From Eledone cirrhosa (taxonomy: Eukaryota), in contig OZ024747.1 of assembly GCA_964016885.1 (NCBI GenBank), positions 69,068,001-69,132,000 on the forward strand: DNA of 64,000 bases, given 5' to 3'. The translations under genes were made by a program, and so were the position numbers. The notes under the pieces were generated by a model. The model had not been told where the DNA came from and searched no databases. It worked only from the letters and a program-made list of their open reading frames with translations. Below are positions 21,789 through 54,467 of this stretch, in pieces (position 1 is the first letter of the stretch; every line of letters begins with the position of its first letter).

Positions 21789-21988
21789 TAACGAAGGAAT
21801 TGTGGTAAGGAACCAGATGGACCATAACACACCAGAGTATTCAATACTTAGGGTAGTAGAGTGGGTAAGAGGAAAAAGTATGACCCCAACGGCAGAGCTC
21901 AAGCAGTTTCGACGGCTATTTATGGACTGAGTCCAGAAATAGCCGTCGAAACGGCTTCAGCTCTGCCGTCGGGGTCTTACTTTTTCCT
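21789..21988. mobile_element. Short fold-back (TA)n-embedded element, family A (also 48793-48967, 51720-51877, 53338-53460, 53551-53630)
   Basis: Shared tail ggtaaggaaccagatggaccataac.caccagagta and hammerhead 3' half GAA-ACGGC..GCCGT-C/ggggtc. Confidence 0.8.
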
Positions 21989-24009
21989 ATATATATATAT
22001 ATAAATGATTGAAGCTCTTCGTATTGTTGTTACTGTTTATGTTAATGTTGTTGTTGTTGCTGTTTTTGTTAATGTTATTAATGTTGTTGTTGTTGCTGTT
22101 CTTGTTTACTTAACTGTTGTTTTGTTATATTTACTGTTATTTTTTGTTGTTTTTATTGTTGTTACTGCTGATCTTGTTATCATTAATATTGTTGTTATTT
22201 TTGATATTTGTTAATGTTCTTTCCACGTTGCCTTTCAACATTTTGGGAGGGGCGATCGATAAAATATGTATTGTGTTCGATTCCAGCGATCATGCCTCCA
22301 TGCCTTTCACACATCTCTCACCTTGTGTCATTGTAACTGCAACCATTAAACATAGTTTTTCTAATATCCCTTGCTGTTTTCCCTACTACTATTGTGTTGC
22401 TGTTGTTGTTGTTGCTGTCGTTATAGTTGCTAGCTTTATTGTTGCTATTATTATTGTTAATGCTTGCTTCATTAATAATACTATTGTGTTGATGTTATTG
22501 TTGGTGTTGTTGTTGTTGCTGGATTCACAATTGGTATTATGTTATTGTTGTTAATGATGTGAACATGTGATAGAAAATACGTTACAAAATAAGTATATAT
22601 ATATATATATTAAACACACACATATGTATATAATACACATATACACACATACATATACATGTATGCAGGCACATATGCACACACACACACACACACACAC
22701 ACACATACACACACACACACACACACACACACACACACACACACACATACATACATATATATATGCTTATATGAATATCCATTTATATACCTACAAATAT
22801 GCACTCTTACAATTCAATCTGTAAGCATAACAAGAAAAACTATGCAAAAATATGCAAACCCTTTCTGAAATTTTAACAAGCAACCAATTTCCTATTCTTG
22901 TTATGCAAACTGCAAATAACTAGTACACATTACTATAGCATCATGCAGTTTATGTCCCGTTCCCCGTTGTTAGTGTAGCACAGCTGATAGTGATGGTATC
23001 AATGAAATGGGAGGTAAGAAGAATTGTGGAAGTTGTGGATCTCACCATAGAAATGAAACATATGATGGGTACAATGCAGAACATTGGAGCATTCAACCTG
23101 ACCTGGGACGGATAAGTAACAAAAGGATACCCTACCAGAATAATAAATATATATGTATGTGAATAATTATATGTTTTGGTATATGAATATATATATATGC
23201 TGTATAATATCATTCTTATAAAAAAAAACATCAATCGTACATCGGGCATTATAATACGTTCCATAACTTGTCATTGTTATCATTATTACCGACTTTCCCC
23301 TCCACCACAAATTGCTGGCCTTGTGCCTATACTAGAAATCATTATTATCACTATTATTATCACTATTATTATTATTATTGTTCTTTGAGTCTCAGTCATT
23401 GATGTTATTTAATTGGAAAGTTTGTTGAAATGAATATCAAGCCGCTACCTGCAGCCTCAGATATTCAGGACGCATCGGAGGGTTCTATTATTATTATTAT
23501 TATTATTATTATTATTATTATTATTATTATTAATGTTGTTATAGGATTAACGATTCACCTCTGTTGTTATTGTGGGATTAGTAGCATTAATGATATCATC
23601 AGATTACACTCTTAATGCAAGTGTTGTTGTTTCATATATGATATGATATATGATATGCTGTATACGAAAAGTTCATCTATAGAGTTGCTTTCTCTCTCTC
23701 TCTCTCACACACACACACACACACACACACACACACACACACACACACACACACACACACACACACACACACACACACACACACACACACACACATATAT
23801 ATATATGTGTGTAGCTGGATTAACCGCTGTTTCAGATTTGCTGCTAAGGTTTCTTTTAGTATATCGACATTTGCCGTCTAACAATAATTATTATATGATA
23901 GTGTCGCCGCGGATTAACTGTAGCTTTGCTATGACGGTGCGTACTATGTAACTGTTATCGCAAGATTAAAATGATAAGCCCTCATTATCATTATTATTAT
24001 TATTAATAA

Positions 24010-24640
24010 GGGTGGTGGATTAGCAGTATCGGTAGAGGGTCGGACGCCATGCTTTGACGCATAGAGTTACGGCCCTTGCCATTCTGAGTTGAGATCCCGC
24101 TGAGGTTAACTTTTCTTTTCATCCTTACGGGGTCGATAAAATAAAGTACCAGTAATGCACTGGGATAATTGCTGGCCTTGTGCCAAAAGTAGAAACAATT
24201 ATTATGGCAGTAAATTGGCAGTGCTGGAAGAATGGTGGATTAACAGAATCGGTTAGAGGTATTCCCCAAAATATCTTGCAATATATGTATAGCTCTTTAT
24301 GTATTGAGATCAAATCTCACCAATGTTAATTTTGCTTTTCAACCTTCCGAGATCGATAAAATATATGTATCAGTACACACTGGGATCAATTTAATCTACT
24401 ACCACCCATCCACCACATAATTGCTGGCCTTGTGCCTGAATTAGAACTAAATAAATTGGCAGTATCAGTAGAGGATCGGATGCCATGCTTTGTAGCATAG
24501 AGTTACGCCCCTTTACGGTCTGAGTTCAAATCCTGCCGAGGTTAAATTTACCTTTCATCCTTACGGGGTCGAGAAAATAAAGTACCAGTAATACACTGGG
24601 ATAATTGTTGGCCTTGTGCCAAATATAGAAACAATTATTA
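24010..24640 (+). mobile_element. Three head-to-tail tRNA-derived SINEs (Meta-domain-like core)
   Basis: A-box-like tggcagtatcggtag, B-box gagttcaaatcc and core gcctttcatcctt..ggggtcgataaaataaagtaccag. Confidence 0.85.
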
Positions 24641-50700: not shown

Positions 50701-52087
50701 CAGACAGAATGGATACACCTGGAATGCTAGAATCAGGGTTGACTTGCGGATAAACAACAGATCCACATAGCAAAAGGGGGGAATATTGTCAATTAAACCG
50801 ATTCTATATAAAGATTGATGTTTATTTTAACGTCACCTAACTCCAACGAATGTTGAAATTCAAAGTTTGATCTCATTGATATTTGAACACAGAGGAGCGT
50901 TGAGAGAGAGAGAGAGAGTAATAACTACTATAATGACATTCATTCCAGCGCCGTATCGTTCCAGTAATTCCGCACGCACACCTTTATATAAATCTAAATA
51001 ACAAAACGATCAAATTTTCGTTAAAAACAAAGCAGGAAAAGAATGACTTGTAGTTAATGATTGAAGTGATTGGGTTTCCTGGAATTCAATACAAGCAAAG
51101 AAAAAGTGAAGAAAAAAGGTAGATTAAGAATAAATAAATCCAAAGTGGTGAGGTTTAACGCAAGCCACATCAAAGAATGGAGAAAAAATGCGTTGTGAGC
51201 TTGAATTAATTCTACGAAAATGAGAGGTAAGTGAAGCTTGACAAAATGGCGTCGTTGTTTGTAACAGTTGTCAACATAAAAGCAATCTCTGAGGAAACAG
51301 CAACACTATAGCATGGCAAAGTATTTGTGAAGACTTAATTTTATATACGTGTATCTTATCAACGGTTAAAAGACGTTAATGATGTCTAAGAATAGTGATT
51401 TTTTTGTTGACTAACATATCGTTCTGCTAAATTTAGAATTTGACCATTATAAAATCAGAATAAAGTGTACTATAGATACACTTTTATACAAATAAAACTT
51501 AGAGAAGAAAGGTAAACTTCTGAATTTACACATAATATAATTTTCTTCTATTTATTATCTCTCTCGTTCTCTCTATCTCCCCGTCTCCCTCTCTCACTCA
51601 CTCTCTCTCTCTATATATATATGTGTATATATATATATATAATATATATATGTATATATATATATATACACATATATATATATACACACATATATATATA
51701 TATATATATATATATATATGAAAAAGTATGACCCCGACGGTAGAGTTCAAGCCGTCGAAACGGCTTGAGCTCTGCCATCGGGGTCATACTTTTTCCTATT
51801 TTCGACTCTACTACCCTAAGTATTGAGTACTCTGGTGCGTTATGGTCCATCTGGTTCCTTACCACAATTCCTTTGTTATATATATATATATATATATATA
51901 TATATATATATATATATATATATATATATATATATATATATATATATATATATATATATATATATATATATATATATATAAATATATATATATATATATA
52001 TATAGAGAGAGAGAGAGAGAGAGTGAGAGAGAGAGATGTGTGTATGTACGTACGCTCGGATACATATTCTGAAAGAAGACAAGTGTC

Positions 52088-52122
52088 ACCTGAAGATCGC
52101 AGTGCCATGAAACTCTAGTCGT
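52088..52122 (+). ncRNA. Degenerate hammerhead motif
   Basis: ac-CTGAAGA-tcgcagtgccat-GAA-ACTCTAGT-C/gt, followed by aataaa. Confidence 0.5.
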
Positions 52123-54467
52123 AAATAAAGGAATTCAGTTTAAACAAACAATATACTCTACATTCTGAATTGAGTATACTCATTCTCATACCTTGACAAA
52201 TTACAATATTTCAACATTCAAATATCTCTCATATCGTTGAACAGTGTTTAAGAATAGTAAACTGAACAACGAACAATACACACACTGATGTTTAACAACG
52301 AATATATACGTGCGTGTGTGTGTGTGTGTGTGTGAAGTGCAGTTGTATATAGTTATATATACATATATGTGAGTGTATGTGTGTGAAGTGCAGTTGTATA
52401 TAGTTATATATACATATATGTGAGTGTGTGTTTGAAGTGTAGTTGTATGTAGTTATATATCATATCATTGTGTATGATAGTTAATTATACATTTCACATT
52501 TATACACAGGCTTCGGCGACAGTGTTGTATCACAGATACAACACTGCCATACAGGTATATAATTATATAACCATATCTATATCTATCTATGTATGAACAC
52601 TCAGATACATATACTCTCCCTCTCTCACGCGCTCACACACACACACACACCCACACACACATGTGTTTACCCCCCCCCCCATTTATTGCAGTGGCTTTCT
52701 TTTTTAACACGACATCTTACTTCTTGTTTTTTGTTTTTTTTTCCTTTTTTAGTCCATTTTTTCTTTGTTTCATTCATGTCTCTCGTGCTATAAGAGCCAC
52801 CACACATCTTCCCTGATGTCACACAAAATTCTGTGTACTTAGCTTAATTGCTAATGTTTTGTCTCTCGTCTGTTACTCCACTGGACAGCGTTTGGCTTAT
52901 GTCAGACGTCATGATCCTGGGTGGCCCAGCAGTTCTGTTGGTAAGAGTCGAAACTACCCAAGTCCATCTCAAAGGCCAATGACCATGGAGTTCTGTGTCC
53001 TTGGTTTGTAATTTTATTTTAAAACAATAAGTTTTTAAGGTTTCCCCTAAGGTTTGTTTTACTTTCGTTCACTGTCTAATTTTCTTAACTTTATATATAT
53101 ATATATATATATATATATATATATATATATATATAGAGAGAGAGAGAGAGTGAGAGAGAGGGGGGGGATAGATAATGATGTATCGAATATCTATCAACAA
53201 AGTATAACCATGAAATAATAAATCACAACCGTTACATGTGATATATATATTTAAGTTTAACACACACACACACACACACACACACACACACACACACACA
53301 CACACACACACACACACACACACACACACACATATATAAAAGAAAAATTCGGAACCCCGACGGCTGGGCTCCGGCCGAATTATTTTATTACCTCTACTAC
53401 CCCAAGTATCGAGTACTCTGGTGAGTAATGGTCTAACTGGTTTTTACTGCCTCCATTGTAATATATATATATATATATATATATATATATATATATATAT
53501 ATATATATATATATATATATATATATATATATATATATATATACATACATAACAAAGAAAGTATGGTAAGGAACCAGGTGGACCATACGCACCAGAGTAC
53601 TCGATACTTAGGGGTCCTGACACTTTTCCTATATATGTATATCTATGTATGCGTGTGTCTGTCTGCGTGCGTGTTTGTGTATAGGCATGTGTATGTGTAT
53701 TTGTACTGATTATATAAATTATATATACATGTATTTATATATACTATGCGACTATATAGATAAATATAGATTTAATTAAGTCGAAGTGTGTGTTTTCATG
53801 GCAAAAGCTATATTTGTGCATGTGAAGAAACAAAATCCTAGTGGTCATTCTATAAGACATAAATATTACTTTCAACACATATGACAGACATGAACACACA
53901 AACACGCATACATGCATCTGAATACGCACACCCGTACATATAGACACCTGCAGACCCCCCCCCACACACACACACACCCACACCCACACACAGATTCTAG
54001 ATAGTTTGTTTGCAAAAGAATTGTCGATATACAGAGGGTTATATATGTATGTATGTGTGTGTGTGTATGTGTGTGTGTATATATATATATATATATATAT
54101 ATATGTACATATATATATATATATATATATATATATATATATATATATATATATGTACATATATATATATATATATATATTTATAAATATATATATATAT
54201 ATATATAAATATATATATATATATAAATAAATATATATATATATATATATATATATATATATATATATATGTAGGAGGTGAGTTTTATTGTAGTACAATA
54301 AAGCAATGCAGATATCGGATAAGAAGCACTCTACAGTTTGTAGGACTGGAGTATACATAATATATAAGAACAAAAGATGGTTAAAAGAGTTCCATGTATT
54401 TTATTATGTGCATTTCAAAAACAAATATCATCATGCAATAATATTTGTGTTTTCATCAGATAAAATA

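Follow-up and report, generated by a model that had tools for sequence, protein, structure and literature searches.

The window analysed here is the whole 64,000-nucleotide stretch of the Eledone cirrhosa assembly GCA_964016885.1 (contig OZ024747.1, positions 69,068,001 to 69,132,000; G000:C7:69068001-69132000 in the coordinates used below) and belongs to a genome of 3.0 Gb. It carries five hairpin-shaped inserts, which are, as judged by their sequence, paired end pieces of a Penelope-like element (PLE) of the Hydra clade of retrotransposons. An earlier note on this DNA had placed them at 21789, 48793, 51720, 53338, and 53551; all five are present there and share one architecture—two head-to-head arms of a single sequence, with (TA)n or related repeats on the flanks. 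In element coordinates, +1 is the A of TTT/AGTCC, the predicted hammerhead ribozyme cut follows +41, and the ATG lies at +232. The arms end outward at a short end, S, at +58 or at a long end, L, at +138. S was measured 17 nt after the predicted cut, close to the "about 18" nt given before.

Insert 1 (21791-21987) is the clean example of a turning point at +1: the long arm (21791..21928, minus strand) runs from +138 to +1 and contains the 3′ half of the hammerhead and an 80-nt tail, one G follows (21929..21929, plus strand), and the short arm (21930..21987, plus strand) covers +1..+58 and passes into (TA)n, with the predicted hammerhead cut between 21970 and 21971. The junction G equals C on the short-arm cDNA, the templated base at −1 being T instead, and is likely a copy of the RNA cap. 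Insert 2 (48795-48966) belongs to subfamily B and combines a long arm (48795..48923, minus strand, about +13..+140, probably to +7 with one mismatch) with a short arm (48930..48966, plus strand, about +23..+60). In insert 3 (51720-51876), the short arm (51720..51752, minus strand, +25..+58) and the long arm (51750..51876, plus strand, +12..+138) share 3 nt. The arms of insert 4 (53340-53459) do not overlap: a short arm of diverged B type (53340..53377, minus strand, about +23..+59) is followed by 8 extra nt and a long arm of tail only (53386..53459, plus strand, from +61), whose outer end has diverged. Insert 5 (53552-53629) also features arms whose element ranges do not overlap; its long arm, again tail only (53552..53613, minus strand, +76..+138), shares GGG at the junction—a 3-nt overlap—with a short arm (53611..53629, plus strand) that was too short for the automatic parser and was read by eye. 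This short arm begins at +42, immediately past the predicted hammerhead cut. The proposal of a short arm starting at the cleavage site with microhomology holds for this insert and was seen in this insert only.

Longer copies run on into the 3′ untranslated region and a GIY-YIG-type C-terminus of the element, and a protein search turned up a young, near-identical subfamily, which is likely to have been active recently. One of its arrays has a unit period of 3,531 bp, an inverted arm, and a frame that, past the ATG, stays open for 716 codons. Such open 716-codon open reading frames (ORFs) in tandem 3,531-bp arrays with a flanking inverted arm lie at G000:C1:437198045-437214409 (loci L131-L133) and also at L134-L150. 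The predicted structure of the 716-residue protein, modeled with a predicted local distance difference test score (pLDDT) of 93.4, has telomerase reverse transcriptase (RT) as its best fold match: the top Foldseek matches are TERT 3du5 and 9swn (E 3e-8 and 5e-8), with other RTs close behind, and the telomerase-like motif YRDDG stands in 113/116 alignment rows. A Pfam search of the whole protein assigned no family, and searches of PDB sequences gave no match. The GIY-YIG endonuclease (EN) lies in the same ORF, as VIY...YIG at the C-terminus; its Pfam match reaches only E 0.05, below the cut-off, and 26-50% of members among the protein-atlas neighbours carry GIY-YIG. DKT replaces DKG in the query and in 107/116 rows; RW[KR] reads RWR in the query and RWK or RWR in 82/116 and 29/116 rows, respectively; the linker CxCx5C is CNCPDRSIC in the query and CxCx4-6C in 113/116 rows. 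CxxC (CNLC) and CxH (CKH) flank E/N in the query, CCHH is absent, and CxxC inside GIY-YIG occurs in 0/116 rows. The flanks show insertion into (TA)n. The tandem array with its period of 3,531 bp and inverted arm displays the layout of EN+ PLEs: partial tandems, a pseudo-long terminal repeat (pLTR), an inverted 5′-truncated copy, and a tail. As defined by Craig et al. 2021 (PMC8557442), the Hydra clade has RWK, DKT, CxCx5C, CxxC, and CxH but no CCHH; the element is assigned to this clade by these motifs. The PLE identity suggested earlier is thus borne out by the 716-residue ORF, the TERT-like fold, and the Hydra motifs. Naiad and Neptune were dropped on domain order and motifs. The copy at L026 is 5′-truncated, the RT being absent upstream of it.

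The 14-mer GCCGTCGAAACGGC of the element has 63,548 exact matches in the genome, its reversed control 1. Unselected DNA of 444 kb—the window together with 10 neighbouring and 28 round-number 10-kb pieces—contains 22 element regions, about one per 20 kb, which extrapolates to a genome total on the order of 100,000 inserts.

For the analysis of the ends, 934 kb at 109 loci were parsed, composed of 70 loci around 14-mer matches, the 38 unselected pieces, and the window. Of 200 parsed arms, 95 end at S, 86 at L, and 19 elsewhere. Chance is not the source of these fixed ends since the unselected 444 kb gives the same picture, with 18 arms ending at S, 17 at L, and 3 elsewhere among 38. The two fixed outer ends described in the earlier note are thereby confirmed, and randomly placed ends are not what was found. 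S and L both precede TAT in the element, which can pair with a (TA)n primer as far as its sequence goes. The two ends occur almost always together: 66 of 78 closely joined pairs are S+L, none is S+S or L+L, and in the other 12 one or both ends went unclassified, a small number of these being parse artefacts. Genome-wide, pairs with a GGACT[CG]AGTCC junction are S+L in 268 cases, S+S in 3, and L+L in 5 (p about 1e-68 versus 50%); the exceptions look real, and about two more L+L cases appear in a further listing. Among long young inserts, which were picked by their protein, 15 loci or sets were examined; all 12 in which both ends are visible are S+L, and the greater length can fall to either arm. 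Contigs from three runs of unspecified kind serve as a consistency check only, since they cannot show RNA starts and their depth is not a copy number: X1 and X4 show loose (TA)n ends at S and L alike, and X5, which bears another organism label, shows them at L. At L041:6144-6472, L153, L169, and L173, inserts sit in the (TA)n flank of earlier inserts, giving palindrome chains. Tail-only copies that meet (TA)n at about +59..+65, beside the short start, were seen at G000:C1:2981244, 10091853, and 10660441.

The earlier statement that variation is confined to the internal junction is correct as far as it goes, yet the junction is strongly concentrated at +1..+10. Among 156 parsed inner ends—a mostly pattern-chosen sample that is biased to arms covering +12..+25 and leaves out long arms beyond −100—84 fall at +1..+10, 25 at −10..−1, 5 farther upstream, and 0 at +41..+50; the unselected 444 kb has 12/38 at +1..+10. 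The turning point is hence mainly set by +1, and the earlier idea of a fold-back around the ribozyme cut was not borne out. Arms that reach +1 number 29,674; when the first 100 of them were tallied by hand, 47 ended precisely at +1, 24 ended within −1..−13, and the other 29 read on. A single base between two arms that both reach +1 is C/G in 268 and A/T in 48 cases, while the templated base at −1 is T in 49/49 long copies; within subfamily A1, where non-T at −1 is rare, a hand count gives about 72 C/G versus 11 A/T. The extra C is present on both arms at some junctions, and a recurrent +1/+7 junction that forms a 6-nt loop makes up 10/100. The summed depth of the run contigs steps up at the bin with +1. 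TTAGTC/TCAGTC at +1 presumably resembles an initiator, the TCAGT[CA]C of a subfamily with C at −1 being closer to the consensus. An extra G at full 5′ ends of L1 and SVA elements has been ascribed to the cap (PMC3287187), and a Penelope element with an internal promoter has been described (PMC2377424). Taken together, the pile-up at +1, the extra C, the cap-G precedent, the internal promoter of Penelope, and the initiator-like sequence argue that +1 is probably a capped transcription start inside hammerhead loop II. Strong-stop transfer, by which the cDNA jumps from the capped end to the 3′ pLTR, should place G at −1 in long arms and found no support: G accounts for only 2/28 non-T bases at −1 versus 9/26 at −2.

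It is unlikely that +1 marks an RNA end of another kind, whether left by splicing at an acceptor (TTTAG/), by a nuclease acting in loop II, or by the ribozyme cut. TTTAG does look like a 3′ splice site, and the intron of Penelope ends within its hammerhead (PMC4209133), but 18 cases have no common sequence past GGACTC, hence no upstream exon was copied, and a plain cut leaves the extra C unexplained. The ribozyme-cut end draws on the start of insert 5 at +42 and on 5/100 long arms that stop at +41..+43 versus 1.3 expected (Poisson p 0.011, hand tally); the empty interval at +41..+50 in the biased inner-end sample opposes it, and the G/C runs at +42..+47 favour microhomology junctions. There is thus a weak hint of a minor class cleaved at +41/+42.

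The hammerhead itself was completed from longer copies, which supplied the missing 5′ half as the earlier note had anticipated, with a different core: in place of CUGAnGA, they read UUGANAA (U3-A8), where N is A, C, T, or G by subfamily, and the canonical type I core CUGANGA ... GAAA ... UH was not found. U3-A8 is a known compensated hammerhead core of the Cercyon PLEs of Schistosoma (Cervera and de la Pena 2014, PMC4209133). The 3-8 pair is kept in 10/11 aligned copies, and stems I-III are retained with 89.7% of cells paired and with covariation: three pairs of stem II changed on both sides, all from two subfamily B rows and so representing one event. The minimum free energy fold shows stems I-III but has z = −0.09. 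Of 198 matches in an Rfam scan of the window, the 150 listed include no hammerhead, as expected from window copies that lack the 5′ half; these matches are mostly miRNA-precursor families below their gathering scores. A transcript from +1, by its sequence devoid of the 5′ half, could not self-cleave at its 5′ end. In L063, L064, and L067, the core reads CUGAGAA or GUGAGAA with a broken 3-8 pair, and these may be decayed copies or a transitional subfamily.

The joining of the arms fits end joining with optional microhomology, as judged by the junction sequences. The 78 junctions divide into 37 with inserted bases, often copies of nearby sequence, 12 blunt ones, 13 with an overlap of 1 nt, 4 with one of 2 nt, 11 with one of 3-7 nt, and 1 artefact. 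Overlaps of 3-7 nt exceed expectation (11/78, versus 2.5 expected among 40, p 3e-5), a figure that local alignment may inflate. The earlier proposal that microhomology joins the cDNAs therefore retains this enrichment of overlaps of at least 3 nt, in a minor role beside the 37 junctions with extra bases and the 12 blunt ones.

Both arms of an insert are, by their variants, from one source copy. In 8 long pairs, 153 variants are common to the arms (of 170 and 174), 41 of which are absent from the other 7 pairs, and the subfamily tag is identical in 32/51 short pairs (shuffled mean 6.6, maximum 15). Shared variants do not decide alone because they fit one RNA, two RNAs of one locus, or fold-back. 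Two separate primings, not fold-back, are supported by the obligate S+L pairing in conjunction with arms that are not nested: in 21/74 S-containing pairs, the S arm reaches at least 10 nt farther 5′ than its tail-bearing partner, and that partner begins beyond +58 in 9/74 pairs and likewise in inserts 4 and 5 of the window. The inner ends of the two arms are uncorrelated (rho 0.16, p 0.18), and long pairs join unrelated inner points that are apart by up to kilobases. The claim that both target strands prime reverse transcription at two RNA positions thus gains from the pairing and the non-nested arms, with the priming itself read from DNA footprints.

It could also be that the two primings used separate RNA molecules from one source locus, with one of two start sites serving each strand. 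Kilobase-long overlapping arms would then need no displacement, and both the uncorrelated inner ends and the shared variants would be expected. Two equal RNAs, however, give no reason for the ratio of 268:3:5, so that an extra asymmetry is needed, and no clear subfamily chimeras occur in 51 pairs; this arrangement is rather improbable.

Self-priming, in which a single cDNA folds back to copy itself (or primes itself on an antisense template) and one arm is cut back by the endonuclease at the internal TAT so that the tail stays on one side, has been proposed in print for head-to-head PLE palindromes (PMC3846280), and the one-sided tail has been ascribed to EN-mediated resolution (PMC8557442). 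It would yield S+L pairing naturally, agrees with arms that share nearly all variants and with the recurrent +1/+7 junction, and later one-sided deletions could mimic part of the non-nested pattern. A fold-back arm must, however, lie inside the first arm, at odds with the 21/74 non-nested pairs, the 9 beyond +58, and inserts 4 and 5. In five parsed +1/+7 junctions (L041, L058, L173, L181, L192), moreover, the short arm reaches +1 and cannot template the tail; the extra C on both arms and the unrelated inner points of long pairs speak in the same direction, leaving self-priming improbable.

A miniature inverted-repeat transposable element (MITE), a DNA transposon with terminal inverted repeats (TIRs), would account for short and very numerous inserts with inverted ends in TA context but has next to no chance of being correct, and the TIR transposon is refuted, since the ends are unequal, the centre varies, and the arms, which consist of the pLTR of an RT-GIY-YIG element, extend for up to many kilobases into the RT ORF and tandem units.

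The best explanation of the inserts is, with good probability, twin target-primed reverse transcription at +58 and +138. Both strands of a (TA)n run would be cleaved by the enzyme. The two target 3′ ends would serve as primers on the element RNA, each at a fixed UAU of its own, and end joining would link the resulting cDNAs inner end to inner end. The tiny inserts would be run-off copies primed near the mRNA 5′ end, with both cDNAs tending to reach the capped +1, and the ribozyme would not be needed to make the insert ends. Somewhat favoured is the further proposal of a single RNA shared by both primers, which a two-subunit enzyme would hold at two bulged hairpins that resemble each other and lie 7-9 nt downstream of the starts; the dimer is suggested by analogy with PAc, the Poseidon element of Anolis. 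The hairpin downstream of S (ACTC-TAC..GTA-TT-GAGT) begins 9 nt after S, the one downstream of L (GCTC-CTAC..GTAG-TA-GAGC) 7 nt after L, and their likeness was judged by eye. The second hairpin, beyond +138, is present only where the pLTR runs into the ORF, and only this pLTR-ORF junction would offer both hairpin sites. The 5′-end run-off would then be the default product, and full or long copies would depend on RNA that reads through a tandem junction, given that the second hairpin lies beyond +138.

In its most general form, the model is tentative: programmed twin priming may be the normal integration of PLEs, carried out by a two-subunit RT-endonuclease on one RNA with two staggered hairpins and one start per strand. 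Monomer transcripts that start inside the ribozyme and are unable to self-cleave would give on the order of 100,000 run-off palindromes of roughly 200 bp, and full copies would arise only by tandem read-through. If true, programmed twin priming would account jointly for the inverted arms, the one-sided tail, and the dependence on tandems through a single model that differs from those of LINEs (long interspersed nuclear elements) and LTR elements.

Several points weigh against twin priming from a capped +1 transcript. The base next to the 47 exact +1 stops is C in 18, G in 23, and T in 6, with many G derived from the partner arm. A subfamily at L165, L169, L174, and L186 has C at −1, giving TCAGT[CA]C, which makes some C/G junctions possibly templated; the estimate for subfamily A1 alone retains the excess of C/G. 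The capped start is deduced from DNA footprints. L-arm stops beside the S site amount to 9/100 at +58..+66, which is not significant (chi-square p 0.09) and only hints that the long cDNA runs into the short primer. Some inserts enter the tallies twice, once per arm, and a few of the loci are duplicates; target-site duplications are unreadable within (TA)n. With RNAfold, only the young copy shows the second hairpin, and the first takes a different fold. Where arms overlap over kilobases, strand displacement would be required, or else a second RNA. Finally, PAc is reported without a start-site difference between the strands (PMC11167929).

The window holds other repeats as well. A near-perfect AT-rich palindrome of a different family lies at 27043-27427, with 191-bp arms, 99% identity, and (TA)n at one end; its relatives are at 27876-28040 and 33063-33270. 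An AT-rich unit at 55499-56261 forms inverted and direct copies around (TA)n, and the same sequence flanks L009 and L027. Another dispersed family with tandem and inverted partial copies is found at 24006-24646, 34080-34191, 35766-36208, 47045-47709, and 61157-63533, and tandem arrays with units of 62 bp and 20 bp extend over 20234-21215 and 6542-7305, respectively. Two long open frames, of 715 and 1,195 codons, and a 72% identical broken relative on the other strand lie at 12897-18496 (plus strand) and 38794-41646 (minus strand); the second frame presumably carries endonuclease/RT-like motifs of a LINE. Frames at 57305-58329, with inverted ends at 57399-57501 and 58155-58256, are transposase-like and, we assume, resemble a mariner-type transposase.

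The inverted copy, the one-sided tail, two RT starts, extension of both strands in vitro, the U3-A8 core, and a Hydra clade in (TA)n are already in print. Obligate pairing, the exclusion of fold-back by non-nested arms, and +1 run-off inside the ribozyme were not found in a literature search whose reach ended at subscription papers and the sequence supplements of PMC8557442 and PMC11167929; a preprint on retrozymes (10.64898/2026.07.22.740005) adds nothing on ends in its first part. The origin of inverted arms and one-sided tail in PLEs has been named as open (PMC8557442) and partly answered (PMC11167929). The pairing and non-nested counts separate the models and argue against published self-priming, while the single-base 5′ boundary and the extra C point to a transcription start. 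Exact bases can be named for a bench test: +1, +58, +138, and the two hairpins. The family also shows that many "MITE-like" palindromes in such genomes are retro-products.

The element resembles the Hydra clade (PMC8557442) in its single ORF, RW[KR], DKT, CxCx5C, lack of CCHH, CxxC/CxH around E/N, (TA)n target, and pLTR hammerhead; it differs in a unit of 3,531 bp versus generally under 3 kb, in a U3-A8 versus a canonical core, and in the 80-nt tail. Canonical PLE insertions feature an inverted 5′-truncated copy and a 30-40-bp tail at one end (PMC8557442, PMC3846280, PMC2377424). Head-to-head inverted arms, partial tandems, and a one-sided tail are common to both, whereas here the single tail was measured as near-obligate, occurs on either arm, and most inserts are about 200 bp long and end at one base. 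With the hammerhead of Cercyon (PMC4209133), the ribozyme shares the compensated core, a long helix II, a short helix I, and a bulge on the 5′ side of stem II; helix III, by contrast, is a full hairpin of 5-6 bp, and self-cleavage is predicted. Twin priming of L1 (PMC2837659, PMC3287187) likewise lets the second strand prime internally to give an inverted segment, and extra G marks full 5′ ends; it is occasional, with variable sites and non-overlapping segments, whereas the element described here apparently uses it as the normal route, with fixed sites and mostly overlapping arms. The closest precedent for the mechanism comes from PAc in vitro, where both strands are cut and extended, two internal starts bound the tail, and the ribozyme cut is dispensable (Frangieh et al. 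2024, PMC11167929). These features, together with an AT-rich target and a predicted dimer, would recur here as read from DNA footprints, and the need of PAc for RNA beyond its start sites may be compared with the downstream hairpins (PMC11167929). PAc is reported to show neither a strand difference in start site nor homology to the cut DNA; here, each site serves one strand, TAT can pair with (TA)n, and the starts lie in the 5′ untranslated region (ATG at +232), not in the ORF.

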